A stretch of DNA of 64,000 nucleotides from an uncultured cyanobacterium (GTDB lineage: Bacteria; Cyanobacteriota; Cyanobacteriia; CAKZMO01): NCBI GenBank assembly GCA_963719515.1, contig CAVRCJ010000006.1, positions 435,866 through 499,865 of the forward strand, written 5' to 3'. Positions 1,941 to 47,214 of the stretch are shown piece by piece. The first letter of the stretch is position 1. Every line of letters starts with the position of its first letter. The translations under genes were made by a program, and so were the position numbers. The notes under the pieces were generated by a model. It was not told the origin of the DNA and ran no database searches. It saw nothing but the letters and a program-made list of their open reading frames with translations.

Positions 1941-4900
1941 CTAGGCGATCGCCGATTCTCGGTCGCCTGTGGAATGCTCGTCTAAGGCCAGTTCGTCCTG
2001 CGCCACAGCCTGGTGCTCCCGCCAATAATCAAACTTCGTAGTATCGATATGCTCCACAATGCCGCCTAGCTGCCGCACCTGCTGCACCATGTCGTCTGTG
2101 CCGCCGGGGCCGTCGCCCCCCTGCCCGTCCCACAGCACAAGCAGCCGCATGCAGTCAATCCGGTGAGTGAGGGCGTTGTACAGCGTCCAGCGGTTGTTGC
2201 GGCTGTAGATATCCTCCCCATCTGGAACCTTGCCCAGCCGCTCGGGCTGTAGGTGAATCGTCGCGTCCGGGTGGTTGGCGATCGCGTAGAAGCGCTCCAC
2301 CCAGCGATCGCCCGCAAAATTCACAGAGTCTTGAATAAAGCCTGGAGGGTCAAAGGGGAGATAGATATCGGCCACCATGCCGCGAGCCAGGCAGGACTCT
2401 AAAAAGAGAATGTCGCCGCCGCAGGCGATGCCGCCGCAGATGGCCCTGCAGCCCGACTGAGCGCCCAAACGCTCTAGCACCGCCTCAATGCGCCGCTTGG
2501 CTTCCGGCTCCATGGTGGCCGGAAAGCGAGGCTTAGGCCGACTGGGGCTATCGATCATGTGGCCGGAGAACATAAATACGGGGGCGGCGGTGTCTCCGTC
2601 GCCCTCCTCAATCGTGGTGCTGTTGAACCGACGCAGCTCTTCGTCTAGTACGGTGCGGCCCGCCTCCACATACTCGGGGCGAAATTCCAGCAGGTGCAGC
2701 AGATACAGCTGATCCAAAATCGATTGGAGGGCAAACTTTTGGTTCCACAGCGCCGTTAGGGCCTTTTTGTAGGCGATCGCCACCTGTATGGGCTCAGACG
2801 CGACGCACACCGCGAGGTCTCCCAGGGACGAGGCCGCCCAAAAGTCCTTGGGGTGGTTTTGCATCTGGCTGCGCAGGCAGAACTCCACCGCCCCCTTGAG
2901 GTCCATCATCTGCTGTCGGTAGGCCGCTTCGTCGGGGTCACCCGTCGGCCCTACCCGCTCCGCTAAGCTGTCCAGCACCGCCGTCAGCATAAAGGCGTTG
3001 ATGCCAGGGTAATAAGAGTTTTGGTTGAGCCGGAAGGCGCGCAGGTAGTTTTCAATCGCCTTTTGCAAAAAGTGGGAGGCGTCGTAGGCGGCTTTGATGC
3101 GCAGCTCGGCCTCTTCTAAATGGAACCACTTGTCTTTCCATAGGTCTTTATAGATCCGAGCCAGATAGGCCATGGCCTGGGTGTGATTGGGCTCGTCCTC
3201 CAGCAGCGCCTCCAGCTTCACGATGGCCTCGTTGGGCTGATGCAGGCGGCTGAGGTGGTAGGCCTCCTCGCAGCGAAACTCGACGTTTTCTGGGTTAATG
3301 TCTAGCCCTTGTCGGTACTGCTTCAGGGCCAAAGCAGAGTTCCCCGTATCCCGCAGCACTTTTCCGGCGTAGGCCAGCACGTCTTCTTTCACCAATGGAT
3401 TTTTCACTTCTTCGGTGAGCAGCAGCACATCGCCGATGCGCTTTTGCCGTTGGGCGACCTGCAGCCGCTGCTGCAGACTGGTGTACTCTTCCCAGTAGCC
3501 GGTGGCTAGAGGGGTGCGCAGGGTCTTGCGGTCAGGCTCTATCAAGCCATCCAGCAGGTTGAAGATGGGGCTGTGAATGGCGTTGCGGTCCGACTCCCAG
3601 GTGGCAAGCAGGGTGCTGATAATGGCCTGCTTATCTTTTTTGAGGTGGGCGGGATCAGGACAGCCGCTGTCATCGCAGTGGTAGGGGATGGTGCGCACGT
3701 TGAAGATGTCGAAGGGCATGTAGGCCCGTCCGGATTGGATGTGGACGATGCCCCGCTTGCGCATGGCGTGGCGGATGCCCAGCTCGTAGTAAACGTTGGC
3801 ATTGTCGATGCTTAGGTCCGCAATCACCAGGTCCGCCAGCAGCAGCTCTTGGAACATATCGGTGAGGATGTCGCCGCTGGCGGATTCTTCGTCGGCGCGA
3901 AAGGGTTCGAATCGCGCCTCTAGCAGAGCGGGTTTGATCAAATCGCTGTAGATGCGGTCGAAGTCAATCCAGCTGCCATCGGCTGCCTGCTTACGGCCAA
4001 AGGGCATCACGACAAAAGCGTGGGGAGCTCCCCGAGGCACGGTGGGCAGCTCTGTAGGCACGGGGGCGGGGACAGGGGCGGGCAGAGGCGCAGGCTCTTC
4101 TACGACCACCGCTGCAGGCACGTTGGGCGGCACCGCATCGACGCTCTTGTCGTCGTCGGCCTGAGGTGGCGCGTCCTCGGTATCGGTGAAGCCGACGTCC
4201 ACCGTGATCGGCGTGATCTCAGGTTCTGTCCCTTGAGGGACCTGGTCAAGTTCAACGGGGGTGGCGGTGGCGGCCTGCAGCAGCGTCTGGTCCGTATCGT
4301 CTAGCTCGGGAATGCCTGAGGGCTGGCCCGTCAGCAGCGCCTCAGTCGCCACAACCAGCTGAAAAAATTGGGAGCCCGTGCGCTCGTCTGGCATCAGCCC
4401 CAGCCAGCGATTGCGAATTAGCATTAGCTCTAGCCGCCGCTGCGTCGCCGCCTCCAGGGTCGCGGTTAGGCCAGAGATGTCAATCCACAGCCCCACCGCC
4501 AGGCTCGCTGCCAGAGGCAAGGCGGCCCACAGCCTGAAGGGACTGGCCAGCACCAGCAGTAAAATGCTGCAGCCCCCCAAGAGCACCACTACCACCCACA
4601 GCACCTGCTGCTGGCGCTGCAGCCCAGCCACCTGCCGCGCCAGCTGAGAAATTTGCGGGTCAAGGCGTTCTGTCAAGTAGCCTTCTGCCAGCAGGTCGGG
4701 GTAGCTCTCGCGGGACGCCGCCTTTGTCATTAGCAGAACTCCGGTGGGAGCCACCTGCTGCTGCACTTGCTCTACCTGGCAAGTTAGCCAATGATGTCGC
4801 TGCGGGATCTTTTGCAGCACGGTACGGTAGAGATAAATAGCCCGCCCTAGGGTCTCGGTAGCGCTCTGCAGGGCTGCCCAGGACCGCCGCTCTCGCATTT

Positions 4901-5183
4901 GGCTGGCGCTGACAAACAGCATTACGGCGGCGATCGCCAGCCCAATCGCGCCCACGCTGAGACCCAACGCCGAAGATGCCTTAGGGGAAGACAGCAGCGC
5001 CAAGAAAATTGCCCCTAACAGCAGCGTCATCCAAGCCGCTTGGACGAGCAGATATTTTCGAAAGGAGTCGCGACCGCTCTTTTGAAGCTGGATATAGAGC
5101 TGCCAAGCATCGGCCAACAGTGAGGAATCGGAGGGGCGATGGCGTTGCGTCATAGGTGTTGAAGGTGAGAAGGGTAGCTGCAT
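1941..5183 (-). CDS. Multidomain conflict protein: two SLATT-like 2TM units, DRHyd/nucleoside-deoxyribosyltransferase-like domain, TPR (DUF4071/TPR-S-like) region, C-terminal SLOG-like domain
   Basis: Four N-terminal TM helices with SLATT-like WAALQSATETLGRAIYLY; AFVVMPFG...ADLVIADLSIDNANVYYELGIRHA; TPR helices with YYPGINA; C-terminal FSGHMID, ACGGDILF and WDGQGGDGPGGT. Confidence 0.8.
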   Translation of the reverse strand: MQLPFSPSTPMTQRHRPSDSSLLADAWQLYIQLQKSGRDSFRKYLLVQAAWMTLLLGAIFLALLSSPKASSALGLSVGAIGLAIAAVMLFVSASQMRERRSWAALQSATETLGRAIYLYRTVLQKIPQRHHWLTCQVEQVQQQVAPTGVLLMTKAASRESYPDLLAEGYLTERLDPQISQLARQVAGLQRQQQVLWVVVVLLGGCSILLLVLASPFRLWAALPLAASLAVGLWIDISGLTATLEAATQRRLELMLIRNRWLGLMPDERTGSQFFQLVVATEALLTGQPSGIPELDDTDQTLLQAATATPVELDQVPQGTEPEITPITVDVGFTDTEDAPPQADDDKSVDAVPPNVPAAVVVEEPAPLPAPVPAPVPTELPTVPRGAPHAFVVMPFGRKQAADGSWIDFDRIYSDLIKPALLEARFEPFRADEESASGDILTDMFQELLLADLVIADLSIDNANVYYELGIRHAMRKRGIVHIQSGRAYMPFDIFNVRTIPYHCDDSGCPDPAHLKKDKQAIISTLLATWESDRNAIHSPIFNLLDGLIEPDRKTLRTPLATGYWEEYTSLQQRLQVAQRQKRIGDVLLLTEEVKNPLVKEDVLAYAGKVLRDTGNSALALKQYRQGLDINPENVEFRCEEAYHLSRLHQPNEAIVKLEALLEDEPNHTQAMAYLARIYKDLWKDKWFHLEEAELRIKAAYDASHFLQKAIENYLRAFRLNQNSYYPGINAFMLTAVLDSLAERVGPTGDPDEAAYRQQMMDLKGAVEFCLRSQMQNHPKDFWAASSLGDLAVCVASEPIQVAIAYKKALTALWNQKFALQSILDQLYLLHLLEFRPEYVEAGRTVLDEELRRFNSTTIEEGDGDTAAPVFMFSGHMIDSPSRPKPRFPATMEPEAKRRIEAVLERLGAQSGCRAICGGIACGGDILFLESCLARGMVADIYLPFDPPGFIQDSVNFAGDRWVERFYAIANHPDATIHLQPERLGKVPDGEDIYSRNNRWTLYNALTHRIDCMRLLVLWDGQGGDGPGGTDDMVQQVRQLGGIVEHIDTTKFDYWREHQAVAQDELALDEHSTGDRESAIA

Positions 5184-5359
5184 AGGGCTGTGGGAGAGCG
5201 GTAGCTCCTATTTAGAGTGCTACTGTTTAGCCCGACCACAGTGACGTTACTGAACTTCTAAGGCGGAGCCTCCCGCAGTTGGGATTCGCCGATAAATTAC
5301 CTGCACCCTTTTCGCTTGTTTGTTAGGACACTGACTTTAGCAGCATCCCCTTAGACCGC

Positions 5360-5542
5360 TTAATGCCCCGCCATCTTTTGAATGACCGACGTTTGCTGCT
5401 CAATCACTGAGGTCTGCTGTTGAGATAGCGCAATCAGAGACGCAATTGATTCCTGCTGCACCAGCTGCAGCGATCGCAGCTCGCTGATCTCTTGCCTTAG
5501 GGACTGAATTTGAGCCTGTACGTCGTCTTGAGAAAATTCCAT
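5360..5542 (-). CDS. 60-aa coiled-coil protein
   Basis: Gln/Leu/Ile heptads; co-oriented between the two SLATT genes. Confidence 0.6.
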   Translation of the reverse strand: MEFSQDDVQAQIQSLRQEISELRSLQLVQQESIASLIALSQQQTSVIEQQTSVIQKMAGH

Positions 5543-5593
5543 AGTTGTCCCAAACCTGTTGGTTATTTTACATAAAGCCAGCGGCGACGCGTG

Positions 5594-7015
5594 CTAAGCC
5601 ACGATGCGCGCCTTGGCCCGGTCGATGTACTTAGAGAATACATCCCAGCCATGGTAGCCGCCATTGACTAGCTTACGTACGCGCCGCCAGTCTCCGGCCC
5701 GGGCCGCTGTCGCGACGCCCCGGTCTTTGAAGTAGCAGGCCAGCACTTTAGCCGAAACTTCAGGATCCATCGCCAGATCGGGGTTGTTTTCTAAGTCAAC
5801 GCCGAGCTTTTTACCGTAGGTGCGGTAGTTTGCCCGGCCCGTCAGCTGAATATAGCCCCGCCCGTGGTAGCGAACCCCATCGCCGGGGTGAATATTCCCC
5901 AGATCTTTGCGGCCTTCGTAGCGTTTCCAGTATTTCTCCCCCCCCCATTCATGAACGGGTTTCATTCCCGAGGTTTCGACGCGGATAGTGGCTAGCATGC
6001 CGATGAGCACGTGTTTGTCGAGGATGTCGTAGTCCTGCAGCGCCGCGAGAATGCCGGGAAGATACTTGCGGCAGTCTTCTAGCGGGCATTCCAGCACTTG
6101 CGACACCTCTTCCGCTGTTGCCAGCTGGGGCACTGAAGCTACGGCCCCATTTCCGCTACGGATTCTCTGGCCGGCTCCATTGCCATTGGCTACTGGCTTT
6201 GTCTGGTTCACAAGCGCCCGAAGCGCGTCGAGATCAACCTCCTCTTCCCAGGGCATCGCCGCAGCCCCCAGTGGCGGCAGCCCCTTCAACGGGTCTAGGC
6301 CATTGGGGGCTGCGGTCCCGTTTGCTACCGGCTCGCTGGCGTCGCCATCAGAAGAATGGGCCAGTCTTTGGCGTTCCTCTAACTGTCGGCGCTCTTCTAG
6401 CTGCTGCGCTCGCTCGAGCTGGACGTTAACGTTTCGCAGGGCGGCCTCGGCATTGAGCTGGGCCTCTTTAGCTGCGAGTTTATCTTCGTCCTGCTTTTCG
6501 TCTAAGCGAGCGAGGAATCCTTGGACATCCTGCTGGATGTATTGCTCGACGCGATTGGCAAAAGCGGTGTAGGCCTCGCTGTGGCTTTCAAACTGGTGAT
6601 AGGGACCGGAGAGCTGGAAAAACTGCCACCCTTCAATCTTCATCCCCTCCGCCGTGTTGCGGTAGTCACGGTATTTGTCGCCGTGGCCGAAGAACTCCTC
6701 CACCGCCGCCGAAACGGCAACGATCTGACTGAGCCCCAAAGCCGTCCATCCGACAGCGTTTTGAAAGCGCTGGTTTTCTTCGCCGGGACTGCGGAAGCTG
6801 ATTAGCGCCGGCACTAAAACGCCGCCGACAATGGTGATCATTCGTAGGGTATGGTGGCGGTTGCGCTCTTTAGTGGCCCGGCCCTCTAGCCACATCAGCT
6901 GATCCAGCCAGCGATTTTTGAGAAACTCTTTGCGCAACTCGGAGATATCTAGACGATCGACGATACCGCCCAGGGTGTTCTTGAGATAGTTTCGGTAGTC
7001 ATTCTTCTTGCCCAT
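5594..7015 (-). CDS. DUF4231/SLATT 2TM domain fused to a C-terminal glycoside hydrolase family 19 (chitinase/endolysin-like) domain
   Basis: N-terminal RWLDQLMWLE, two TM helices and YRNTAEGMKIEGWQFFQLSGPY; C-terminal ATIRVET, YEGRKDLGN, YHGRGYIQLTGRANY, VNGG. Confidence 0.85.
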   Translation of the reverse strand: MGKKNDYRNYLKNTLGGIVDRLDISELRKEFLKNRWLDQLMWLEGRATKERNRHHTLRMITIVGGVLVPALISFRSPGEENQRFQNAVGWTALGLSQIVAVSAAVEEFFGHGDKYRDYRNTAEGMKIEGWQFFQLSGPYHQFESHSEAYTAFANRVEQYIQQDVQGFLARLDEKQDEDKLAAKEAQLNAEAALRNVNVQLERAQQLEERRQLEERQRLAHSSDGDASEPVANGTAAPNGLDPLKGLPPLGAAAMPWEEEVDLDALRALVNQTKPVANGNGAGQRIRSGNGAVASVPQLATAEEVSQVLECPLEDCRKYLPGILAALQDYDILDKHVLIGMLATIRVETSGMKPVHEWGGEKYWKRYEGRKDLGNIHPGDGVRYHGRGYIQLTGRANYRTYGKKLGVDLENNPDLAMDPEVSAKVLACYFKDRGVATAARAGDWRRVRKLVNGGYHGWDVFSKYIDRAKARIVA

Positions 7016-7454
7016 ATGCCTTTAATCCCAAGTGCTTATCGTTAAACTAGCGCAATTGTGAAGGGCGATCGCGCTCCAGCGCGTTTGCGTAGAACATCCG
7101 AGCTGTAGATGGTCCGACGGTTTTCGCCGAACTTCGCAAATACTGCAGGAAAGTCACAAAAATTCACGTCTTCAAAATCTTAAAAAGTGAAACCTGCTTT
7201 AGAGAATCAATACCTAAAAATACGCTGCTCCACTAAAAATCTCAAGCGGCTGCAGATATTTCCATGAACTTACGTTTCGATGCTTTAGGGGTATTTACCA
7301 AAACTTTATTTCGCTCAGGCTATAGTGCAAATATCTTGCTTTGCCTTGAGGCCGCCTTCCTCGAGGCTAGAGCCAGGATTATTGCCCAGAACGGTGTAAT
7401 AAGCCGTGCTAATGCGGGCGATTGTGCAACTACCGCTTAGGCTCCCCAATCGTC

Positions 7455-8648
7455 ATGAATCTTCACCTTAACGTCCTCCAGCCTCAGTACGAGCGAGCGT
7501 TTCTCAACTGCGCTATTCGGTCCGACAGTCAGTCGCAGGTCGAGGCGATCGCCAATCAGATGGTTGGGCTGCGATCGCATTACGAAGCCGTAGAAGCAGA
7601 GACGGGAGTGCCCTGGTGGTTTGCCGGGATTTTGCACTACCGGGAGTGGAATTTTCGGGAGCCTGAGCTGTTTGAGCGTAAAGCAGCAGAGGTTTTGATT
7701 GCCAAAAACTATCATCAGGCCCGTACGCGCACCTTAGGAGCCTACCTGTGGGGCTTTGACCTTTGGAACGGGTTTCGAGACGGCTCGGGTGAAGACTCCT
7801 CCTGGGTGTGGGCGGGCACCAACATTCTTGAAGAGGACACCCAAAAAATTGGGGTTGCCGCCATCCTGGTGTATCTGCAGAAGAGGAATATCATCGACAT
7901 GCCTAAGCCCCAAAAGGGGGCGCGGCTGATAGTGCTTGCAGATACCACCTTTAAGGTCCGGCCCGAGCAGTCCTACCGCCTGAAGTCAGACGAGAAGATG
8001 GTCGTCAAGGCGGGGACTCAGCTCGAGGTGCTAGAAGACGATCCAGCGGAGGGCAACCACACCAAAATTGTGCTCCCCGATGGGGTACTGATGGGGCAGG
8101 ATAGCCGCAGTGACTGGTATGTGTTCAGAGGGCATGTGTCCATGGAGGGCACTGATCCAAAAAATCAGCCCAAGGACGAGCCCGAGGAGCCTGTCGCCTC
8201 GGTGGCTTCTGAAGACAAAGGAAACCCCATTACGGTGCCTAAGCTGGGCACCGTGTATCTCGGCAACCCCATCTTAGAAGGGGGGCATTTTAGCTGGGCT
8301 GAGGCCACTAAAAACGGGGCCCGCATTCCCGTAGACGGGGGGGTTGTGGACGGCATCCTTAAAATTGCTGAGGTGATGGAAGAGGTGCGGGAGCATCTGG
8401 GCGATCGCTCCATTCGGGTTAACTCCTGGTACCGCGACCCGGTAACCAACCGCCGCGTGGGGGGAGCCAGCAAATCGCGCCACCTGAGCGGCGATGCGGT
8501 GGACTTTGTGGTGTCAGGCATCTCTCCGCCTCAGGTGAATCGTCAGCTCGAGTCCTGGTGGAACAGCCAGGGCGGTCTGGCCAGCGCCAGCAGCTTTACC
8601 CACCTCGACGCTCGCGGCTATCGCGCCCGCTGGTCATACGGATTTTAG
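7455..8648 (+). CDS. Lysozyme-like domain + SH3-like linker domain + peptidase M15A (Zn D-Ala-D-Ala carboxypeptidase-like) fusion
   Basis: YEAVEAETGVPWWFAGILHYRE; C-terminal VNSWYR, SRHLSGDAVD and FTHLD zinc-ligand motifs; ATG at 7455. Confidence 0.8.
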   Translation: MNLHLNVLQPQYERAFLNCAIRSDSQSQVEAIANQMVGLRSHYEAVEAETGVPWWFAGILHYREWNFREPELFERKAAEVLIAKNYHQARTRTLGAYLWGFDLWNGFRDGSGEDSSWVWAGTNILEEDTQKIGVAAILVYLQKRNIIDMPKPQKGARLIVLADTTFKVRPEQSYRLKSDEKMVVKAGTQLEVLEDDPAEGNHTKIVLPDGVLMGQDSRSDWYVFRGHVSMEGTDPKNQPKDEPEEPVASVASEDKGNPITVPKLGTVYLGNPILEGGHFSWAEATKNGARIPVDGGVVDGILKIAEVMEEVREHLGDRSIRVNSWYRDPVTNRRVGGASKSRHLSGDAVDFVVSGISPPQVNRQLESWWNSQGGLASASSFTHLDARGYRARWSYGF

Positions 8649-8663
8649 TTAGAAAAAGTAGCC

Positions 8664-11600
8664 ATGAATAGCTTCCAAGATGCGTTTATCTCCTACGGAC
8701 GCAAGGACAGCAAGGCGTTTGTCGCTCGCCTAAATCAGCGGCTGTTGGCGGCGGGGTTAGAGATTTGGTTTGATTTTGACGACATTCCCCTGGGTGTGGA
8801 CTTTCAAAATCAAATCGATGACGGCATTGAAAAATCCCACAACTTTTTGTTTGTCATCTCTCCTCACGCCGTCAACTCTCCCTACTGCCGCAAGGAAATT
8901 GAGCTAGCGCTTCGCCACCGTAAGCGGGTTATCCCGCTACTGCACGTGGAAGAAGTAGACCGGGCAACCTGGGCAGCGCGATCGCCAGACGGTACCAATG
9001 AAGATTGGGACACCTATTGCGCTCAGGGACTGCAGTCTAGCTTTGTCAACATGCACTCCGACATCGCTAAGATCAACTGGGTCTATTTTCGCGAGGGGCA
9101 AGACGACTTTGAGGCTGCGTTTGCAGGGCTGTTGGATATCATCGGCCGCCAGCAGGATTACGTGCATCAGCATACCTATCTGCTCAAGGATGCTCTCACC
9201 TGGGAGCGGCAGCAGCGGCAGCCTACCTACCTGCTGGGCAAAGACGCCGGGCGTGCCCACCAGTGGCTGACGAAGACGTTTGACGAGCAGCCCCCCTGCT
9301 TCGCTACTGATCTGCAGGCGGAGTTCATTACCGAAAGCCTAAAGCGGGTCAACGGGGGGATGACCCAGGTGTTTTTGTCCTACAGCGAGGAGAACCGGCT
9401 GCAGCGGGAAGTAATTCACCGTATTCTCCAGCGTCAGGGCTTCACGGTTTGGGTCAACACCACCGATATTCAGAGCGGTACGGATTTTGAGCAGGCGATT
9501 CGAGAAGGCGTAGAGCGGGCTGACACCGTCGTTTATTTGCTCTCCCCCAATGCTTTGGCCTCCCAATACTGTCAGCAGGAGCTTGGCTTTGCCCAAACCT
9601 ACAACAAGCGGATTATCCCACTGCTGATTCACCCTGTGGATGGGGTGGAGGTGCCCGATGAGCTGCGGGTCATTCAGTTTATCGACTTTCAAATGATTTC
9701 TGGGACTGATGAGGCAGAAGGCAGGGTCGAGGACGAGGCGGCGCAGGGGGCCATCGCCAAGCTGATTCAGGTGCTGCGGCAAGACGAAGACTATTATGAC
9801 TGCCACAAGCGCACCCTAGTCAAGGCGTTGCACTGGGAGCGCAACCGACGCCGCAAGAAGCACCTGCTGCGGGGGAGCGCGTTTGCCGAGGCGGAAACCT
9901 GGCTGACGGCCAGTCGGCACCAGACGCTCCCGCCCACTCGTCTGCAGGAAGCGTTTATCCAGGCTAGCCAGGACATCAACCGCTACTTTGACGCCTTTAT
10001 CTCCTATGGACGCGCCGATAGTCTTCAGTTTGCGGTTCAAGTGCAAGAGCAGCTGAGCCAGCAGGGGCTAAGCGTCTGGCTCGATAAAAGCGACATTCCG
10101 GTGGGGGTCGACTATCAGGCTCAGATCAACGACGGCATCAGCAAGTCCCACAATTTCATTTTCATCATCTCCCCCCATGCGGTCCACTCCCCCTACTGCC
10201 TCAAGGAAATTGAGTTTGCCCTGAAGTTCAACAAGCGCATCGTGCCCCTGATGCACGTTGAAACCATTAGCTACGAGACCTGGCGGCAGCGCAACCCTGA
10301 GGGCACTTCGGCCCAGTGGAAAGATTACCAAGCGGCGGGGCGGCATACCGCACAGGGAAGCGTCCACTCCGAAATCAGCAAAATCAACTGGCTCTTTTTC
10401 CGTGAGGGGGTAGACGAGCCCGAAGCCGCGATCGCCAGCCTCATCGAGCTGCTGCGGCAGCATGAGCCGGTGGTTCATCTGCACACTGAGCTATTGCTCA
10501 AGGCGTTAGCCTGGGATACTCACCAGCGGCAGGCTCAGTATCTGCTCACCGGAGACGATCGGCGGGAGGCGGAAGCCTGGCTGACGGCAGACTTTGCGGA
10601 GGAGCAGCCTCCCTACCGACCCACCGACCTGCAGGCGGCGTTCATCACTGAAAGCATTAAAAGCGTTGACGGGACGACGCAGGTGTTTTTGTGCGCGGCG
10701 GACGAGTATGGGAATGAGGAGCCTTCAGCCTCAGAGGCACCGGCGGCGGACACTCCTATACTCCAGTCAGCTCAGATTCGGCGAGCCCTGCAGCGCTCGG
10801 GCATTCCCGTCTGGAATCCCCAAACAGATGTGCAGGCCGGGGAGAATTTACAGCGGGCGATCGCTCGCGGGGTTGAGGAGACCGACAGCGTTGTGTTTGT
10901 GATATCGCCTCAAGCGCTGGTAGAAACGGTGTGTCTTGAGATTTTAAACCAGGCATTTCAGCTCAACAAGCGCATCATTCCGGTGCAGCTGCAGGCCTTG
11001 GATAATCTGAAGCTGCCCTCGGTGCTCAAGTCGCTGCGGCCCATCGGGCTAGAGCGCGATGGCGGCGGGCTGACGGAACTGAGCGTCCAGCAGCTCGTGG
11101 GAGCTCTGCGTCAAGATGCGGTGTACTACCGCACCCACAAGCTGCTGCTGCGCAAAGCCCTCAAGTGGGAGCGGCAAAAATATAACCCCAGTATCTTACT
11201 GCGGGGCAAAGCGCTGCGGCGCTATGTCACCTGGCTCGACGTGGCGCAGCGCCGTGAGCATTCTCCCATTCCCATTCAGCAGCGCTTTGTCCGCGAAAGC
11301 CTGGACCAGCCCCCTAACCAGACCGTGGACGTGTTTATTGCCTCAGCTCCAGAGGACATCGAGTTTGCCCGCAGACTGAACCAAACCCTCCAGGTTCAAA
11401 GTAAGACCACTTGGTTTGAGCAAGAGCACCAGGCCACCGAGGTCGACGCCCAAGGCGATGTTCGGCAGGCGATAGAAAACGCCGAAAACGTGGTGGTAGT
11501 GGTGTCTCCTAACTCGGTGGGCTCTGCCGCTGGCCTCAAAGAGCTAGAGCATGCAGAAGCCCTCAACAAGCGCGTTATTCCAGTGCTCTATCAAGAGGTG

Positions 11601-13175: not shown

Positions 13176-13265
13176 TGTGATCGCCGCGTACTGAACTGCT
13201 GTCATCTTTGCCTTGGCGAAGACCCAGGCCCTTCCCCCTATAACACCGTCCCACCCCTAGTTTCC

Positions 13266-14225
13266 ATGCCGCAAGCTCTCCGCAAGCTCATACACCGTAC
13301 CCTCGCGATCGCTCTCATCGCCTGGGTACTGGTGCCTCTACAGATTCCAGAAGCTTCTGCCGGTCTATTTGGTTCACCTGGGCGCGGCCCCAGCAGCGCC
13401 TCTGGCCGCAGACGCGGGGGGGGAGTTCGCAGCGGTCGCCTGCTGGGGGGCATCAACCCAGCCATCCCCTACGTGATTTCTCCCCGCCACACCTGGCTAG
13501 AGGACGACACCTTCACCATCGAGTGGAACCCCGTGGCGGAAGCTACCAGCTACACCGTCTCCCTGTGGCGCTGGTCCTACGCCCGCGACGAGCGAGACGC
13601 GCTGATTTGGCAGACCACCACCACCGAGGCCCAGGTGCCCTATGCCGGCAGCCCAGCGCTAGAGCAAGGTCGACATTACTCCATTGAGGTGGTGACCGAC
13701 GGCGGGATTTCGTCTACCGCCGACGCCGGTGACGCCAGGGCCGGGTTCCAGCTGCTGTTTGCCGAAGATCTGAACCTATTGGAGCGCGATCGCCTGCGCA
13801 TTGAGCGGCAAGACCTGTCGCCCACGGAAACGGCGTTTACCCTAGCTGCGCTGTACGCTGAAGACCATCTGTATGACGAAGCTATCGATATCCTGACGCC
13901 CCTTACCGAGGCCGGGACGCGCGACCCCTGGATCCATAAGGCCCTGGGCGACGTACAAAGTTATATCGGGTTGAATCAGCGCGCTCTAGATCACTACCGG
14001 CAGGCCCATCAGCTTGCCGTCGCCGCTAACGACAGAGAGACGCAGGCAATTATCCTAACCAGCTTGGGCGCAGTCAGCGCGACCTCAAACCGGCTAGATG
14101 AGGCTATCGAGTTCTTCGAGGCGGCTCAGCAGCTCTACCGCCTGCAGTCGGTAGACGACAGGGTTGCCCGGCTGCAGCGTCGTATCGACCTGCTTGAAGC
14201 GGCTCGCCAAGCATCAAAATTTTAA
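13266..14225 (+). CDS. Secreted DUF928-like / TPR protein
   Basis: Signal-peptide-like N-terminus, GRRRGGGVR motif, beta-rich segment, LAALYAEDHLYDEAI, C-terminal TPRs; lies next to the CHASE2 and CHAT genes. Confidence 0.65.
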   Translation: MPQALRKLIHRTLAIALIAWVLVPLQIPEASAGLFGSPGRGPSSASGRRRGGGVRSGRLLGGINPAIPYVISPRHTWLEDDTFTIEWNPVAEATSYTVSLWRWSYARDERDALIWQTTTTEAQVPYAGSPALEQGRHYSIEVVTDGGISSTADAGDARAGFQLLFAEDLNLLERDRLRIERQDLSPTETAFTLAALYAEDHLYDEAIDILTPLTEAGTRDPWIHKALGDVQSYIGLNQRALDHYRQAHQLAVAANDRETQAIILTSLGAVSATSNRLDEAIEFFEAAQQLYRLQSVDDRVARLQRRIDLLEAARQASKF

Positions 14226-14303
14226 ACTGTTGGCCCACAGCTATTGGTTCACAGCTCTAAGTCGCGGTCTCCAGAGCGCCTACAAACCTACTGCCTTAAC
14301 CCT

Positions 14304-17300
14304 ATGCCTGCCTACTCTCTTACGCTACGGCTCTCCCTACTGACGGCGGCCCTGATGCTGCTGGGCCAAACCTCAGCCGTGGCTCAGTCCGTCGTCGAGG
14401 CTGACGACGACGTTGGCACCGTGGTGAGGCAGCGCGATCGCACCTTCGATATTGACGGCGGCACCCGCTCGGGCGACGGACACAATCTATTCCACAGCTT
14501 CGAGCAGTTTGGCCTGGACGCGGGCGAAATCGCCAACTTTCTCTCTGACCCGGAGACCCGCAACATTTTGGGCCGGGTAATGGGCGGTGAGGCCTCCCTG
14601 ATTGACGGGCTGCTGCGGGTGAGCGGCAGCGACGCCAACCTGTTTTTGACTCAATCCGGCGGGCGTGATTTTTGGCGAGACTGCTCGCCTAGACGTGGGG
14701 GGAGACTTCACGGCGACCACCGCCACCGGCATTGGGTTTGGTGAGGGGTGGTTCCCGGCTGTGGGAGATGGGGACTACAGCGCCCTGGTGGGCGACCCGA
14801 CGGCGTTCGACTTCGCGGTGGCGACTCCCGGATCTATCGTTAACGCTGGCGCGCTGGCGGTGACGCCGGGAGCGTCTCTCACATTGCTCGGAGGGAGCGT
14901 GCTGAACACCGGCACCCTCACCGCGCCGGGAGGCACCTTGACCATTGCGGCGGTGGAGGGCGATCGCCGGGTGCATATTACCCAAGAGGGGATGCTGCTG
15001 GGGCTGGAGCTGGAAACCCAGGATTCTCCTGCTGCTGAAAATGCGCTGCCCTTCACGCCGCTGGCTCTGCCGGAGCTGCTGACTGGAGGCGGGGTCAGCA
15101 GCGCTAGCGCGGTGCAGGTGAGCGACGGGGAGATCAGGCTGAGCGGCTCGGGGCTGACGGTGCCCAGCGGTGCGGGGACGGCAATCGCCTCAGGCACCCT
15201 AGACGCCTCTGATCCAGGGCGCTCTACGGCGGAAATTAATGTGGTGGGCGATCGCGTAGTGGTCGCAGACGCAGCGCTGGACGCCTCCGGCGCAGAGGGG
15301 GGAACGGTGCGCGTCGGGGGAGATTTGGGCGGTGCTGGGACCATTCCCAACGCCAGGGACACTCTGGTGACTGCCGACAGCGCGATTCACGCCGACGCGC
15401 TCGCGGGAGATGGCGGCACCATAGCGGTCTGGTCTGATGAGACGGCGACCGTGGGCGGGGTGCTGACGGCGCGGGGGGGCGCGATCGCCGGTGACGGGGG
15501 CTTCATCGAAACCTCGGCCAGCACCTTGACCCTCAACAGCACGCCGGATGCCAGCGCCCCCAGCGGCAGCGGCGGCACCTGGCTGATTGACCCTACCGAC
15601 ATCGACATTGTGGCGGGAGCGGGGGCGATCGGCAGCAATACGGTAGGGGCTGACACCATCAGCGCTGCTCTGAATACGGGCACTAGCGTCACTATTACCA
15701 CCGAGATTGGCGGCACCGATGCGGGCAACATTACCCAAGCCGCAGACGCGCCGATCGCCAAGACAGAGGGCGGTGACGCGCAGCTGGCCTTTGAGGCTGC
15801 CGGTGACGTTGCCCTACCTGCAGAAATTACGGCGACCAGCGGGGCGCTAGACGTGACGGTTATTGCCGACGCCGATGGCAACGGCAGCGGGGTCGTTAGC
15901 GTTGGCAACGCCGGAGCGGGGGGTATCACTTCCAACGGCGGGGCTATTGCGATTACCGGCAGCAGCAACAACCCAGCCTCTGACTTCGGAAGCGGCGTCC
16001 GCATTCAGGGGCCGGTCTTCTCCGGCGGCGGGGACATCACGATCGCAGCGGCGACGGCGCTGCCTGATGAGACCCCCATCGATTTGCGATCGCCGGTCGA
16101 CGTCGGGACAGGGACGCTGACGCTTCAAGCCGACCTGCTGCCCCCCGCCTTCGAAACGCTTCAGGGCACCGGCACCTTACAGCTGCAGCCCTTCTCCCCG
16201 GCGATCGCCTTTGACCCCACGGGAATCGACCTAACCGCTGTCCCAGACACCTTCAGCAATGTGATCGTCGGCGACCCCAACAGCACCGCGCCAATTCTTA
16301 TCAGCGACGACTTAGCTTTTAGCAGACCGCTAACGCTGCAGACCACAGGCGATATCACCTTCGATGCGGACGGAGCGCTGATCACGATTGACGGTCCCAG
16401 CCTCAGCGCTATTTCGGGCAATACCATTCGCATCAACTCAGATTTAGATGCAACCGACTTAGCTCTGACCGCTACCAACGACATCGTCTTCAATAGCGCG
16501 ATGGTTGCCGCCCAGAATTTGAGTGCGATCGCCGCCAACAACATTGTGATCGCGCCGGGGGTGTCTCTCACCTTTGGGATTCCCGACGAGCTGTCGGCTG
16601 TGCCGCTGCCGGAGGATGCCGCGATTGTGCTGACTGCCAACGCTGATGGCGTGGCGGGGGGGGACGTGACGATGGACAGTACCGAATCGCTTACGATTCC
16701 TGGCGGACGCGACCTCAGCGCTTCTGGAGAAAATGTGGTCCTTGGCACGCTTTCGGTGGGCGACTTTCTGCAGCCGTTTGATGCTGGTGACGTTATCACC
16801 GGCTTCATCGAACGACCGGCGGCAGATGTGACCTTGAGTGCCGCCGCCGACCTTTCGGTCACTCAGCTCGAATCTAGCGCCAATACAGGCGGAGACCGGT
16901 TTGTACCGACCTTGCCTATCCAGGCTATCCAACAGGGGGGGGACGTCTCCCTGTCGTCTGCGGTAGGCGATATCACCGTCGCGGGCAGCATCCGCGTTGA
17001 AGCTGACCCATCGGGCGCTCAGACCGATCTGCAGGGGGGCAGCGTCACTATCAGCGCAGCTCAGGGCGACGTCACCATTGGCGACAACATCAGCACCTTT
17101 GCGCGGGACAATGCTCCTGGCAGGGATGCCGTAGACGTCGACTTAGTTGGTGGTGATATTGATATTGATGCTCCCAATGGCGAGGTAAGGGTGGGCGGAC
17201 AGCTGGCAACCTTTGCCCGCAACACTATGCCAGGAGAGGTCTCTGTGGGAACGGGGGGGAGTGTCAGCATCGTGGCAGACCGCATCCGCATCGACAATGC

Positions 17301-20300
17301 TGCTGAAGATCGTATCGGTGTCTTCGCTATCGAAGCGCCAAGCGTCGACGAGATCATAGATGCCCCCGGCATAGGTGGGGCGATCGCCCTGACGGCCCCG
17401 GGCGGCGTTCAAGTTGCTGGAGACATCATCACCAGCAACGCCCCGATTACGATTGACGGTCCTGCCATCCTCAGCACTCCGGAGGGAGACCGCGTCAGCG
17501 TCACTAACCAAGGTACGACGGGGGCGATCGCCTTTGGCGACACCCTAGATGCGCCGGACGGCCTGCTGGTAGAGTCTGGGGCGGGAGATGTGACCTTCGA
17601 TGGCGCGGTGGGCTCCAGTACCCCGCTGGACAGCCTCAGCATCGAAAGCAGCGGGGCAACCCGGTTTAACGATGATGTCAGCGCCGTCAGCCTCACCACC
17701 GACGGCGGCGGCAGCACGGACATAGGGCTCAACCCCACCCTGAGCCTTGACGCCCTTTCCCTGGGGGATACGCTGCTGGGCAGCGGCAGCCTGACGCTGC
17801 AGACGCTTTCACCTGGGCTGGCGATCGCCCTGGGAACGCCGATAGGGTCGCTACCGGCAGACTTGGTGTTGAGCGCCGCCGCCACGGGGCAGCTGTCGCA
17901 ATTTTCGGGTCTTGCGGTGGGTCGACCCGACGGCAGCAACGATGTTGGGGTTTTTGCCCCGATCACCGTCAATGGCCCCGTGACGCTGACCGGTGGTGAC
18001 ATCACCGTTGACGCTGCTGCCGCCCTAGAGACGTTGAGGGGAGATATCGCCCTTGACGGCGACGGTGTTGACATCGCTGGAACCCTGGCCTCGAATGGTG
18101 GAGATATTGCGGTGAGCGGTGACGCTGGCGACGGAGGCATCGACGTCGCCCTATCGGGGACGATCGCTGCCGGGAGCGGGGATATCGCTCTGACAGGCAG
18201 CCAAATCGACATTGCCCCGGAGGCTACGGTCAGCGGCAGCAGCCTGCTGCTGGTCCAACCCAACGTCGCCGACCTCGACATTGAGCTGGGGGGCACGGCG
18301 GGGTTCCTCAGCCAGAGCGAGCTGGACGCCCTGGCCGCTGGCTTTGGCGAGATTACCATCGGCCAGCCTGACAGCACGGGCAGCGTTACCCTGAGCAGTG
18401 GCGTACGCGTCAGCAGCCCCCTCACGATCGCAGGCGGGTCTATCCTCATTGGCCCTGACCAAGACACAATATTCACGATCACCGATGGCGATGGCGGCCG
18501 CGTTTCCGGACTGGGGTCCCCCGTTCGGTTCGAGAATTTTGAGGCGATCGCGGCGGGCAGCGGTGACGATACGTTCCGCAACGGCAGCGTCTTTGACGGG
18601 GCGCTGGACGGCGGCGCTGGGTTCGACACCTTTGAGGCGGAAGCTGACGGCACTATCGAGCTTACAACCCTCGATCTGGAGAACATTGAGGCCATTCGCG
18701 GCAACAACAGCAGGCTGCTGGGAACCGCCGGGGCTGATGACTTCTCGGTTACTGCGTCAGATACAGTCGAGGTGCAGGGCTTCAGCATCAGCGAGCTGGC
18801 TCAGGTCGACGGCGGCGCGGGCAGCGATCTGTTCCGAGTTCTGACGGCGGCAGCGCTCGACGATTTTATTCGTGGGGGGGCGGGCGACGATGAAATAAGC
18901 TACGCAGGACTCACTGGGTCCCCTCAGCATCGACTTAACCGCCCTCAACCCCGAGGGCATTGAGACCCTTACGGGCAGCGCTGGCGACGATACGATTCAG
19001 CTGGGCAATAGGTTTGACGGCGCGCTGTTTAGCGGCAGGATTGGGGGCGGCCCTGGCGATCTCACCCTGCGGGGCGGGACGCTCAACCTGGCGGAGCTGA
19101 CCCTCAGGGCAGCTGGCGATCTGACTATTGAGGGCAATGGGGCAGTGACGGTCGGGAACCTAATCAACCCCGGAACCGATATCACTATTACCGGTAGCGC
19201 CATCACCACCGGCACCCTCAACACCAGCGCTGCGGAAGCGGAGGGGGGGGCGATCGCCCTTCGGTCAGACTCATTCATCGAGACCGGCACCCTAATCACC
19301 TCGGGGCTGTCGGGCGGTAACCTACGAGTGGAGGCCACCACTGAAATCACCACGGACCGCATCGACACTAGCGGCGCTCTTGACGACGGTGGCGACGGCG
19401 GCGACGTTTTGCTTGACCCCAGCGGCGATATTCAGGTGACGAGCATCAACGCGCAGGGCGGGCCAGCTGGCATCGGGGGGACGATTGACATTACCACCGA
19501 GAGGTTCTTTCGGGCCACCGGCCAGTTTACGGATCAGACCAACACCCGAGCGAGCATCTCGACAGCTGGGGGCGGGGGGGGCGGTCCGATTACAATTCGC
19601 CACGGCGGAGCGGGACTGATTCCTTTTTCCATCGGTGACGGCGGCGGCGATCTTCTCAACGGCACCTCAGCGGCGATCGCCAGCGGGACTGCTGCCCTAT
19701 TGCCGGTTCAGGCCATTGAAGAGAGCCTCACGGTCGGCAATATTCGGATTTTGACCGACGTGTCAGAACGGGCAGACGTGCTAGATCTCGATCCCTGCCC
19801 TCCGAACTGCGGGGACCTAGAGGCAGATCGTCTCGGTCAGTTTCAAGCCTCAGATCTTGAGGCAGACGTCTCCGACAGCATAGACTCGCCCCTCGTCGAG
19901 ACCCTATCTACCAACATCGGCGAGGTCGCAGCCGCTGTCTCACAGCTAGAGGAGCAGTTCACCGCAGAGTTCTCTGAATACTTGCGGTTGGGCCGTCCGG
20001 ATCGGGTCTCGCTCTCTGAGCTGCAGGCCAGTCTACGGCAGGTCCAAGCGCAAGCCGATATCTCTCCCGCCATTCTCTATGTCACCTTTGAGGATAGGGA
20101 AACGAAACAAAGGCACTTCGATTTCGCAATCCGATCGCCGTCTGGAGCTGATTTTGGTGACGGCAGATGGATTGCCCTTGCACCTCCGCGTACCTGAGGT
20201 AACCCAGCGACAGCTGCAGCTCGAAGCGGCGCGGCTCAGGCGGCAGGTGTCTACCCCAAGCCGGGTGGGGACGACCCTCTATGAGGACTCGGCCCAGCAG

Positions 20301-21161
20301 CTCTATCGCTGGCTGATTGCGCCCGTGAACGACGCATTGGTGTCCCAGGGCATCGACACTGTTGGCGTTGTCACGGATGCCGGGCTGCGATCGCTGCCCT
20401 TTGCGGCCCTCCACGACGGCACCGGCTTTTTGGTTGAGCGCTACGCCCTCACCCTGGTCCCCAGCGCCAGCTTGACCTACCTAGAGTATGAAAATCTTCA
20501 GCAGACGGGGGTTTTGCTGGGAGGGGCGAGTCAGTTCGCTAACCAGTCGCCTCTGCCGTTTGTGCCCGTCGAACTCGATCGCATTCAGGCCCTTTGGGGG
20601 GGCGATCGCTTCCAGGGGGATGAGTTTACCCGCAAAGCTCTCGCGGACCAGGTGCAGCAAGACTACAGCATTATTCATCTGGCCACCCACGGGGAGTTTC
20701 AGCCCGGCAGCACTGAAAACTCATACATTCAGTTCTCCGATGGTCGGCTGCAGGTTGACGAACTCAAGGCCCTCGACTGGCAGCCTGACGATATCCGGTT
20801 GGTGACCCTCAGCGCCTGCCAAACGGCCCTTGGTAACCGCGAAGCCGAGCTGGGATTCGCCGGGCTGGCCGTGGCCGCTGGAGCCCAGTCCGCTCTAGCC
20901 AGTTTGTGGAGCGTCAGCGATGCGGCTACCACAGGCTTAATGATAGAGTTCTATGAAAACCTACAATCTATCTCAACTAAGGCCCAAGCGCTGAGGGCGG
21001 CACAGTTGGCTCTAATTGAGGGTAGTCTACCGATAGATGAGTTGCTTTTGGAACAAGGCAGCTCAGCTTTGGACGTTTCAGAAGCTTTTTCCTCCGGAAG
21101 TCAGTCTTTTGAACACCCCTTCTACTGGTCTGCCTTCACCCTAGTCGGTAGTCCTTGGTAA
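14304..21161 (+). pseudogene. Filamentous haemagglutinin N-terminal (TPS) domain + beta-helix + CHAT (caspase-like) protease; about 2284 aa if repaired, split by three +1 frameshifts (real or assembly error)
   Basis: NLFHSFEQF and split NLFL/xNPAGVIFG TPS motif; WLIDP; GGAGxD repeats; CHAT dyad IIHLATHGEF / LSACQTA and HPFYWSAF; frame changes at ~14650, ~18920, ~20100. Confidence 0.85.
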
Positions 21162-21223
21162 TTAAAGCTGCTATTTGTAGGTAGAGTTGATAGACTATCC
21201 CGCCGACAGTGTTTATTTAAACT

Positions 21224-21547
21224 ATGGCCAATAGAACCGTTTCCTTTCGGCTCCCCGAGACCCTAATTCGCGCGATTGAAGCAGAGGCAGAGCGCACGGG
21301 CCGTAGTAAAACTGAGGTGGTGATCGAAGCCCTGACGCATCAAGATAGCCCCCTCGATGCCCTGCCCGCTATTACCAAGCCCAGAAGCCAGCTAGAGCGT
21401 CAAATCGACACCATCCGCTCTCAGGTTGAAGACATCCACGGCACGTCCAATATCCACGTTGAGCAGCAGCTGGCCATTCTCATTAAAGCTGTTGAGGACG
21501 TTGCGTTGCGGGTTCAATCTATTGAATCACGGCTCAACTCGCCATAG
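21224..21547 (+). CDS. Ribbon-helix-helix (CopG-like) DNA-binding protein with coiled-coil tail
   Basis: TVSFRLPETLIRAIEAEAERTGRSKTEVVIEAL. Confidence 0.8.
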   Translation: MANRTVSFRLPETLIRAIEAEAERTGRSKTEVVIEALTHQDSPLDALPAITKPRSQLERQIDTIRSQVEDIHGTSNIHVEQQLAILIKAVEDVALRVQSIESRLNSP

Positions 21548-24246: not shown

Positions 24247-24539
24247 GTTGTCGTCCTTTAAAACTTTGGAAACTGAGAAGATTAACGGCAGGAGAGCTGC
24301 ATTGACTGACGCTCAGCGGGGCGTAGCGCCATGCAAAAGCCCGCCCAACTGATAAACCTAGCTGGTACTGAAAGTCAGTAAGACCAAGGAGACAGGCTTG
24401 GCGTGCGGTCTGAGAAATTTATCTTTAGAGATAAGTTAATAGTATTCGAGGCTGAGAAGGCTTGGCCTAAGTTGTTCCTTCCCTAAATGATTTCTTTAAG
24501 GAAAACGTACCAACAATGAAGATCTACGGCGGCAAAATG

Positions 24540-46219: not shown

Positions 46220-46327
46220 GCTTGGCTGTCCTGAAGTTGAGGCGGGATAACCTATTTATTTTTGCAAACCGCTGCTGGGAATGGGGGGCTTCGTTGACAA
46301 TCTGTATCGTTTTCTATGAAGTACGTC

Positions 46328-46569: not shown

Positions 46570-46571
46570 CG

Positions 46572-47150: not shown

Positions 47151-47154
47151 AAAG

Positions 47155-47193
47155 ACAATAGCGTACTGATGAACGGGCTGCAAGAGTAGTACG
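47155..47193 (-). promoter_or_regulatory. Sigma70-like promoter with a flanking inverted repeat
   Basis: TTGCAG-N17-TATTGT on the minus strand; CGTACT...AGTACG inverted pair straddles the -35. Confidence 0.45.
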
Positions 47194-47214
47194 GATTTTT
47201 TTGGGCGATCGCTA

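Follow-up and report, generated by a model that had tools for sequence, protein, structure and literature searches.

The window analysed here, a 64-kb stretch of contig C6 (CAVRCJ010000006.1) in the 5.28-Mb genome of an uncultured cyanobacterium, carries two divergent gene arms that combine a predicted membrane receptor bearing five TIR domains and a CHASE2 domain with SLATT and SLOG proteins and two peptidoglycan hydrolases (Table 1). An earlier note on this DNA, made from the sequence alone, had proposed the arms as a single candidate conflict system ending in programmed lysis or filament excision. Open reading frame (ORF) calling and Pfam searches found the reported genes to be real and mostly as first described, and the locus is likely, on sequence grounds, to be a variant of the TIR second-messenger systems in which a surface receptor would serve as the input and a pore-endolysin fusion as the output.

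Table 1. Genes and features of the divergent locus, in positions of the window.
Feature	Position	Strand	Support
SLATT-DRHyd-TPR-S-SLOG gene, 1080 aa	1941..5183	-	Pfam SLATT_1 and TPR-S, hydropathy, AlphaFold model
Gln-rich predicted coil, 60 aa	5360..5542	-	ORF conserved among related loci
SLATT (DUF4231)-GH19 gene, 473 aa	5594..7015	-	Pfam, NCBIfam
Divergent intergenic region between the arms, 439 bp	7016..7454	.	GC 0.458
Lysozyme-fold and M15 gene, 397 aa	7455..8648	+	Pfam Peptidase_M15_3, model
TIRx5-CHASE2 receptor gene, 1503 aa	8664..13175	+	Pfam TIR_2 x5, CHASE2
TPR gene, 319 aa	13266..14225	+	TPRs, N-terminal hydrophobic segment
FHA-like two-partner-secretion (TPS) and CHAT gene, four frames	14304..21161	+	Pfam TPS, CHAT
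Ribbon-helix-helix (RHH) gene, 107 aa	21224..21547	+	Pfam RHH_1

The left-arm gene next to the intergenic region encodes SLATT fused to a GH19 domain. The SLATT part scores 98.6 bits against an NCBIfam SLATT_1 cut-off of 41 and contains two hydrophobic helices (residues 56-75 and 87-105), so the protein is predicted to be tethered to the membrane and not soluble, which departs from the earlier description. In the right-arm M15 protein hydropathy analysis found neither a hydrophobic segment nor an export signal. The GH19 domain retains Glu347 and Glu356, each kept in at least 95% of 58 alignment rows, and its nearest solved structures are phage endolysins (9ms7, E 4.6e-23; 4ok7, E 1.7e-15), with the best chitinase match at E 1.9e-8; the glutamates and this closer kinship suggest a domain of endolysin type. 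Action as a chitinase against fungal parasites was also considered and is less likely, because endolysins match far better and because GH24, C39 and M15 domains take the place of GH19 in related proteins.

SLATT is thus fused to four different wall hydrolases (GH19, GH24, C39 and M15), and in the GH19 and GH24 fusions the catalytic residues are kept. Among the best 120 homologues, drawn from proteins of 260-828 aa with shorter stand-alone forms outside the search, 59 carry GH19 and 27 carry GH24. The closest named match of the window protein, at 77% identity, comes from a record labelled Elainellaceae cyanobacterium. Going by record labels, by an assumed filamentous or non-filamentous habit of the genera and by few lineages, most hydrolase fusions come from filamentous genera, and Microcystis, Xenococcus and Pleurocapsa have SLATTs that stand alone. 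The two helices would place the hydrolase on the same side of the membrane as the basic SLATT N-terminus, which is predicted to be the cytoplasm, so that it would be kept from the wall for as long as the membrane holds.

In several lineages the gene that immediately follows SLATT-GH19 is the 60-aa ORF, present as a single copy in the source genome and matched 28 times among the collected loci (duplicates counted) with the motif QQESI.SLIALSQQQT; it was not found in Adonisia/Leptothoe-type or SLATT-GH24 loci, and neither Pfam nor NCBIfam assigned it to a known family. Its position, said to be typical of immunity genes, invites the reading that the hydrolases are weapons: a signalled cell would lyse or leak, and the freed GH19 and M15 enzymes would attack neighbouring bacteria, not the cell's own wall. 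The exchange of hydrolases on a constant N-terminus does resemble polymorphic effectors, and the absence of an export signal from the M15 protein is in keeping with release by lysis. This reading nevertheless appears very unlikely, given that GH19 is bound to a two-helix membrane anchor, that Pfam and NCBIfam gave no secretion marker or immunity family, and that the 60-aa ORF was not found in many loci.

The remaining left-arm protein, of 1080 aa (1070 aa from the methionine at residue 11 used as the database start), begins with two SLATT-type units holding four hydrophobic segments by hydropathy. Pfam returned SLATT_1 and TPR-S in it, and neither DRHyd nor SLOG. An AlphaFold model of residues 382-1060 (pLDDT 81.9) resembles the CMP hydrolase MilB at its N-terminus (4ohr; Z 11.1, root-mean-square deviation (rmsd) 3.8 over 137), a match tied with the SARM1 TIR domain (Z 11.3), the ASK1 TPR region in its middle (5ulm; Z 14.8, rmsd 3.7 over 261) and YpsA at its C-terminus (2nx2; Z 15.3, rmsd 3.7 over 164). 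These likenesses emerged only from a wide structural search; searching solved structures by sequence with the glycosidase-TPR-SLOG profile, or running Foldseek on the model, returned TPR proteins only. A glycosidase motif, N-A-N-x3-E, lies at residues 461-467 and is invariant in 60 alignment rows. The model therefore points to a MilB-like nucleoside glycosidase fold (DRHyd), an ASK1-like TPR-S region and a YpsA-type SLOG domain, and between them Pfam, hydropathy and structure bear out the make-up first assigned to the left arm (SLATT-GH19, 60-aa coil, SLATT2-DRHyd-TPR-SLOG). YpsA-type SLOG regions were also seen among FHA-like genes in two other proteins (L128:12008-14008, 666 aa, and L189:5931-8144, 737 aa), one beside TIR-CHASE2 and the other directly after LSDAT, the first with a Pfam TPR-S match.

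On the right arm, repeat alignment resolves the receptor into five repeats of a TIR domain and a helical linker, followed by a membrane helix (residues 1090-1111), CHASE2 and three C-terminal helices. The glutamate at the catalytic position is present in repeats 1, 2, 3 and 5, with isoleucine in repeat 4; for repeats 1-5 of 21 five-repeat homologues it is found in 21, 20, 21, 18 and 5 respectively, and for repeats 1-3 of 12 three-repeat proteins in 12, 12 and 11. A full-library search recovered 436 representatives of this TIR-repeat family at E 1e-30 or better. In the best 150, a hydrophobic helix lies within 60 residues after the last TIR repeat in 132 and never follows an internal repeat (0 of 358); because lysine and arginine are richer before than after that helix in 121 of the 132, the TIR domains are predicted to be cytoplasmic. 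Beyond the helix the same 150 proteins carry WD40 (75), CHASE2 (16), a short tail (10) or other sequence (49), and Pfam analysis of 34 of these 49 found more WD40, together with Cache, TPR, FGS and WG repeats and one LRR. The TIR-CHASE2 protein is accordingly predicted, from these shared features, to belong to a family of single-pass TIR-repeat receptors with exchangeable C-terminal domains.

Three TIR-repeat proteins with LRR or Cache beyond the membrane helix (P0366, P0312 and P0284) were noted separately, the LRR form being nearest to a Toll-like make-up. Genes of this family are often broken, as at C7:68060-72043 and C1:151528-155590 of the source genome and at L130:165-6054; one is split by what looks by eye like a transposase-like ORF pair, another lies in two ORFs, and in a relative TIR-CHASE2 is split by a 434-aa insert.

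With three to seven TIRs per chain, such a protein could make a strong NADase, and the array might itself be the effector, depleting NAD+ on clustering, with the SLOG and glycosidase proteins removing or buffering the products. SLOG domains can act enzymatically on N-glycosidic bonds (PMC9503650), and in BcTir/BcTpr it is the glycosidase-TPR protein, not the TIR, that makes the signal (10.1101/2023.05.26.542521). The SLATT, patatin and hydrolase partners would, however, be left unexplained, and we consider this the least credible of the explanations weighed here.

The M15 gene ends 15 bp before the receptor gene, as had been reported, and Pfam, the model and the ORFs uphold its lysozyme-M15 make-up. 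Its N-terminal domain (model pLDDT 92.7) belongs to the lysozyme superfamily, with middling best matches to the lytic transglycosylases MltF (Z 6.7, rmsd 3.3 over 106) and MltE (Z 6.6) and a TM score of 0.72 to a phage protein; it keeps the residues HYRE and lacks a loop seen in one longer homologue. The zinc-peptidase residues His343, Asp350 and His383 are present, and catalytic residues are likewise kept in the TIR, GH19, CHAT and glycosidase domains. For the 319-aa gene, which had been called DUF928-like, Pfam gave no DUF928 match and profile comparison matched an N-terminal segment only. Of 12 other TIR-CHASE2 loci that were scanned, 11 have DUF928 at the corresponding place, and homologues of the 319-aa protein, 34-41% identical, sit in the same place in Adonisia/Leptothoe-type loci.

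FHA-CHAT carries the TPS and CHAT domains expected of it, the latter with the dyad His204 and Cys247 in the last piece, but it is not the single ORF first described: the assembly breaks it into four frames at three shifts near 14650, 18915 and 20105. Contigs of runs X1-X4 contain frame-restoring indels at all three, a support that amounts to single contigs of depth 2-6 from one study which may include the source sample; the relative G002 has an intact gene of 2380 aa, and 3 of 81 other conserved genes of the source assembly are also frameshifted. Assembly error is for these reasons the likely cause, and the gene is likely intact in the organism; a pseudogene, the alternative considered, is less likely, as the contigs of four runs restore the frame. 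The wider CHASE2/DUF928/FHA/CHAT arm is a common, multi-copy module, with DUF928 in 170 of 221 genomes of the class (a sample of at least 90% completeness that includes the source genome), four to seven close CHAT paralogues in four of five genomes and other module copies in the source genome itself, so the extracellular protease envisaged as the trigger is only one possible input. The RHH gene, although present, probably does not belong to the system as had been supposed. Among the collected loci it was found only in the same-genus genomes G002 and G004, and in none of five distant genomes searched. In G004 (locus L009, G004:C734; 93% complete, 980 contigs), where the search for TIR repeats gave nothing and that for LSDAT only a partial match, it lies directly divergent from SLATT-GH19 with the M15-to-CHAT block missing. 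A role as regulator of the system was rejected on this distribution, and the gene is likely a flanking bystander.

Whether the arms belong together is best judged from other genomes. SLATT-GH19 was used to scan species-representative genomes, which yielded 66 loci, 39 of them full-length. An M15 gene stands divergent from SLATT-GH19 in 22 of the 33 loci with at least 2.5 kb of upstream sequence, and TIR-CHASE2 follows it in the same divergent order in 17 of the 28 full-length loci with at least 7 kb upstream (in one of the 17 split by an insertion); some TIR-repeat gene is present in 21 of these 28, and a SLOG gene in 23 of the 30 loci with 1.5 kb on both sides. Of the 17 full-order loci, 16 form one group, comprising Adonisia, Leptothoe, Leptolyngbya PCC 7375 and related records, so the complete order represents in effect two lineages; because it recurs in this second lineage, the arms do co-occur beyond the source, contrary to the refuting condition set in the earlier note, that they never would. 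Within that group TIR-CHASE2 shows about 48% identity and LSDAT replaces the 1080-aa gene. In a tree of 23 TIR-CHASE2 C-terminal halves the two adjacent-arm lineages are not sisters, the joining branches being unstarred, and the topology would fit ancestral synteny and repeated assembly alike.

Related genes meet in other orders. Co-directional operons running TIRx3, (glycosidase-TPR-)SLOG and SLATT occur in Microcystis-, Xenococcus- and Pleurocapsa-labelled records, and co-directional TIR-repeat/SLOG/SLATT operons also in G116, G132, G146 and G221; TIRx3 genes flank SLATT-GH19 in Moorena, PCC 6406 and Spirulinaceae records; Coleofasciculus has SLATT-TPR-SLOG, LSDAT and SLATT-GH19 in that order and no TIR gene; Sphaerothrix has only M15 and SLATT-GH19. 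The source genome holds four TIR-repeat receptors, one LSDAT, one DUF4231 SLATT, two two-unit SLATTs and two YpsA-type SLOGs, and at C11:196543-201732 a TIRx2-helix-WD40 gene (1239 aa) lies divergent from a gene for a 373-aa two-unit SLATT that matches the profile of the 1080-aa protein's N-terminus at E 9e-49. Within the 221-genome sample, a TIR-repeat gene lies within 10 kb of SLATT in 8 of the 23 genomes with both, spanning six families, against 0.24 expected (0.7 if TIR genes were undercounted threefold); with LSDAT and YpsA-type SLOG included, adjacency reaches 11 of 36 TIR-repeat genomes. Of 20 SLATT loci of the sample, three of them picked for adjacency already known, 13 have LSDAT as a neighbour and 7 a TIR gene, and 6 have a wall hydrolase fused or close by. 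The two arms are linked, but more loosely than as one locus.

The steadiest association is with LSDAT. The sample contains SLATT in 43 genomes, a TIR repeat in 36, TIR-CHASE2 in 24 and LSDAT in 61; LSDAT accompanies all 36 TIR-repeat, all 24 TIR-CHASE2 and 42 of the 43 SLATT genomes and was found in none of 14 control genomes. The hypergeometric value is 3e-25, or 9e-10 within six families, both overstated by kinship among the genomes. As at most 61 of the 170 DUF928 genomes carry LSDAT, it is the TIR repeat that LSDAT goes with, not the CHASE2 module. The idea of a SLOG partner for the receptor was right in that SLOG genes are linked and misplaced in its choice, the constant partner being LSDAT (36 of 36) and not the left-arm YpsA-type SLOG, whose close form occurs in 7 of 221 genomes. 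Among the 25 LSDAT genomes outside the 36, five that were examined (G051, G105, G151, G162 and G172) have a one- or two-TIR relative beside SLATT/LSDAT. The best 80 metagenome LSDAT loci include a TIR gene in 20 and SLATT in 26 (17 and 20, respectively, of the 44 loci of at least 5 kb), and some of these loci, at 67-69% GC, probably come from outside the cyanobacteria; 11 of the 20 TIR genes have a helix of hydropathy at least 1.6 after the last repeat. In four metagenome loci (L217, L219, L244 and L250), two of them at 67-68% GC, LSDAT and SLATT share one chain. At L162:6984-8965, L166:6017-7925, L210 and L216 LSDAT is followed by a patatin phospholipase instead of SLATT, with TIR genes adjoining in three.

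The LSDAT profile finds its best solved match in the MHR1/2 region of TRPM2 (E 6e-21), above TRPM8 (7e-15). Human TRPM2 holds ADP-ribose (ADPR) by Y295, R302 and R358 (PMC6759353); an invariant tryptophan of LSDAT stands at the equivalent of Y295 and an invariant arginine at that of R358 (W138 and R191 in the source genome), positions counted on a zebrafish alignment with human-fish equivalence taken from equal spacing. The only LSDAT of the source genome (C11:160780-161493) stands alone, on a contig other than that of the locus, and downstream of genes whose translations resemble, by eye, lipid A synthesis genes.

A number of observations weigh against a single lytic system. Firstly, most receptor genes stand apart: 16 of 20 TIR-CHASE2 loci (19 of 25 matches and one other piece) and 16 of 19 TIR-WD40 loci (one per genome) have no SLATT, SLOG or hydrolase in the flank examined, and in G050 the arms lie on different contigs. 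Secondly, the effector side is uneven, with no match to the DUF4231 query in 13 of the 36 TIR-repeat genomes; beside LSDAT, two of these have a two-unit SLATT (G187 and G212) and two a patatin (G078 and G137), and 8 of the 12 DUF4231-negative genomes examined have neither there (three on contigs below 7 kb). SLATTs without a fused hydrolase are common too, so lysis is not a universal output. Thirdly, co-occurrence statistics are overstated because the genomes are kin, and the SLATT-GH19 survey overlaps in part with the SLATT set of the 221-genome sample. At the level of residues, the equivalent of TRPM2 R302 is not kept in LSDAT, the fourth TIR repeat of the window receptor lacks the glutamate that the fifth retains in few five-repeat homologues, and the lysozyme-like domain of the M15 protein is without the loop and has structural matches of only Z 6-7. 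Finally, neighbours of the scanned loci are mostly housekeeping genes (carB, rpsU, RRM, recG and leuA), whereas Thoeris types were found by their setting in defence islands.

The stand-alone receptors lend some colour to the view that two independent modules, one for CHASE2/DUF928/FHA/CHAT signalling and one for SLATT, SLOG and wall hydrolase, sit side by side by inherited synteny. The right-arm module is common and multi-copy, and both full-order lineages fall in one clade that also holds non-adjacent copies, where a single old event could suffice. We regard this as improbable all the same: TIR-repeat genes with varied C-terminal domains join SLOG and SLATT in several orders, LSDAT co-occurs with every TIR-repeat genome when the DUF928 control does not follow suit, and the source genome has a second TIR-repeat/SLATT pair on C11. 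The earlier view of the arms as one system accordingly stands in their recurrent association and is weakened by the many solitary TIR-CHASE2 genes.

Comparison with described systems places the locus close to Thoeris, which comprises TIR-effector operons that react to phage infection (10.64898/2025.12.03.692087). As described there, type VII pairs the TIR protein ThsB with a SLATT effector, ThsH, and type VIII pairs a TIR with the CMP-hydrolase-TPR protein ThsI, both driven by cyclic ADPR (cADPR), and type VII is stated to be present in Cyanobacteriota; the main text of that preprint has no mention of CHASE2, LSDAT, WD40, lysozyme or peptidoglycan. Like type VII, the present locus has a TIR gene together with a SLATT gene, and the TIR bears its catalytic glutamate as in both types; the SLATT, to which GH19 is fused, scores above the SLATT_1 cut-off and is at most a candidate counterpart of ThsH. 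Unlike type VII, the TIRs here form a five-fold array in a 1503-aa membrane protein with CHASE2, SLATT is joined to an endolysin-type domain, and there are SLOG genes as well. TIR and effector genes lie in diverging arms, separated by the M15 gene, instead of forming one operon, a co-directional arrangement seen in relatives only. As in type VIII and BcTpr, the 1080-aa protein unites a MilB-like CMP-hydrolase domain with TPRs, and its N-x-N-x3-E corresponds to N80/N82/E86 of BcTpr, for whose type YpsA and LSDAT neighbours have been reported (10.1101/2023.05.26.542521); it differs in being fused to two SLATT units and a YpsA-type SLOG and in having a membrane receptor, not a small TIR protein, as its partner. 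With respect to Thoeris I-III, PADLOC found no ThsA match among 12 window proteins, and ThcB4 reached 124 bits against a cut-off of 220. Because the operon arrangement and the ThsA and ThcB4 models fail, the locus is not filed as Thoeris, though it would work like types VII and VIII.

Other likenesses are partial. LSDAT, SLATT and TPR-S were reportedly defined by Burroughs et al. in 2015 and by Burroughs and Aravind in 2020. The LSDAT_prok and SLATT pair (Pfam PF18171, PF14015 and PF18181) is predicted to be a ligand-gated membrane effector, according to papers citing that work (PMC7159879, PMC9503650 and PMC13143021); the adjacency of LSDAT to SLATT at the sampled loci and at many SLATT-GH19 loci, and their metagenome fusions, agree with such a pair, which at the window is separated by contig and is adjacent in relatives. 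LSDAT is like TRPM2 in its homology to the ADPR-binding region and unlike it in having no TRP pore. Toll-like and IL-1 receptors place one membrane helix between a sensor domain and a cytoplasmic TIR (PMC7075850), and a functional likeness can be seen in the predicted cytoplasmic TIRs, single membrane helix and outside sensor of the present family, the window protein having three further C-terminal helices. The TIRs here are N-terminal, two to seven per chain and equipped with the catalytic glutamate, and the outside part is mostly WD40 or CHASE2 (LRR in one of 34 scanned); with neither an N-terminal LRR ectodomain nor a single C-terminal TIR, these proteins are not members of the Toll-like receptors proper. 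The right arm shares gene order and domains with cyanobacterial CHASE2-DUF928-FHA-CHAT clusters, a CHASE2 receptor, TPS/FHA protein and CHAT protease standing together, and differs in its output, a TIR array standing where a kinase or another signalling domain would otherwise be (cf. locus L051); a CHASE2-DUF928-WD40 cluster has been noted before (PMC5587647). In the published work searched, no TIR-repeat membrane receptor with LSDAT and no SLATT-hydrolase fusion appeared among the matches listed, and DUF4231 appeared in none of the 25 matches listed by one literature search; the papers defining LSDAT and SLATT and the preprint supplements may already show part of this. Phage holin-endolysin cassettes couple a small membrane protein with an endolysin. 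SLATT-GH19 and SLATT-GH24 likewise join a small two-helix membrane part to an endolysin-type enzyme, here in one polypeptide, in a chromosomal housekeeping context and tied to nucleotide-signalling genes.

A pathway can be drawn that would join the domain make-up, the helix after the last TIR repeat, the conserved catalytic residues, the repeated gene linkage and the exchange of C-terminal domains and hydrolases, all of which are observed, by biochemical steps that we infer. With the TIRs inside and CHASE2 outside, as charge bias and domain types suggest, ligand-driven clustering of the receptor would switch on NAD cleavage by the TIRs to give ADPR or a cyclic form, as in analogous proteins; LSDAT, the YpsA-type SLOG/TPR protein or SLATT itself would bind the product, by analogy with TRPM2 and Thoeris VII/VIII; and SLATT would breach the membrane, giving the cytoplasm-facing GH19 and the M15 protein access to the wall in the manner of a holin fused to its endolysin. 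FHA-CHAT and the DUF928-position proteins would be a likely input of the TIR-CHASE2 receptor only, a protease trigger being unnecessary for the rest of the family, and the several receptors of a genome, four in the source, would share few effectors. Such a pathway may serve a filament by killing a threatened cell and excising it. That an outside cue leads through the receptor, an NAD-derived signal and SLOG/SLATT to membrane breach and wall lysis that excise a cell from its filament is the likeliest of the readings and a proposition we hold to be evenly balanced between right and wrong.

Its strongest competitor keeps the same chain from receptor through nucleotide to SLOG/SLATT and gives it a non-lethal output. 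The wall would be remodelled locally, or ions would flow, as filaments break, hormogonia are released, or the cell moves or responds to stress, and SLATT would be a gated channel or would anchor the hydrolase. It would account for a housekeeping neighbourhood that is stable across Adonisia/Leptothoe-type loci, for CHASE2 and Cache as small-molecule sensor domains, for the homology of LSDAT to an ion-channel gate and for the many hydrolase-free SLATTs. It sits less easily with the patchy presence of LSDAT, SLATT and TIR repeats across the sample and the absence of the M15-to-CHAT block from G004, with the exchange of the effector for patatin, with hydrolases of phage-endolysin type, and with the toxicity that SLATT and glycosidase-TPR proteins show as cADPR effectors in Thoeris VII/VIII (10.64898/2025.12.03.692087). 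We judge it unlikely, if still deserving of serious attention.

A broader proposal returns to the lytic pathway, and is offered tentatively as more probably wrong than right in its full form: that cyanobacteria possess Toll-like receptors with swappable sensors, that these act through an ADPR-type messenger on free LSDAT, and that in filamentous lineages SLATT-endolysins burst the signalled cell and so remove it from the filament, a surface-triggered immune death that would be a candidate basis for necridia. If true, TIR second-messenger signalling would extend to the cell surface. TIR-repeat receptors were never found without the TRPM2-like LSDAT in the 221-genome sample, and prokaryotic LSDAT would gain a likely signal source, which bears on how ADPR-gated TRPM channels arose. 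In filaments, the SLATT-endolysin fusions would also provide specific genes for the controlled death of single cells; a review states that a link of hormogonia and necridia to cell-death pathways still needs experimental proof (PMC7965980). Laboratory strains offer a way to test the idea, since Trichormus variabilis and Nostoc punctiforme are among the organisms listed with a SLATT-GH24 protein.

The intergenic region between the arms had been singled out as AT-richer; its length and composition were as reported (GC against 0.598 for the region), yet this is ordinary, as a second intergenic stretch of the window, 24247-24539, is equally low (0.457). BLASTN of the region against the other collected loci gave no match, and a promoter and terminator scan stayed at chance (6 against 5.2 expected and 11 against 16.9), giving no sign of co-regulation of the arms. 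No phage structural family was found by Pfam among 17 proteins of 0.5-28 kb, no phage-aimed (PHROGs) scan having been made. A Fic-domain gene with PADLOC SoFic and PDC-S04 matches near 1e-29 lies at 574-1320; it flanks the window copy only, the relative G002 having leuA on that side. On the other side, at 21648-23531, a membrane GTPase with weak PADLOC LeoA/LeoBC matches (about 6e-9) adjoins RHH, as it does in G002 and G004. Farther along, at 46001-51000, GC skew is strongly positive (up to 0.30), and GC falls to 0.41 at 50-51 kb.

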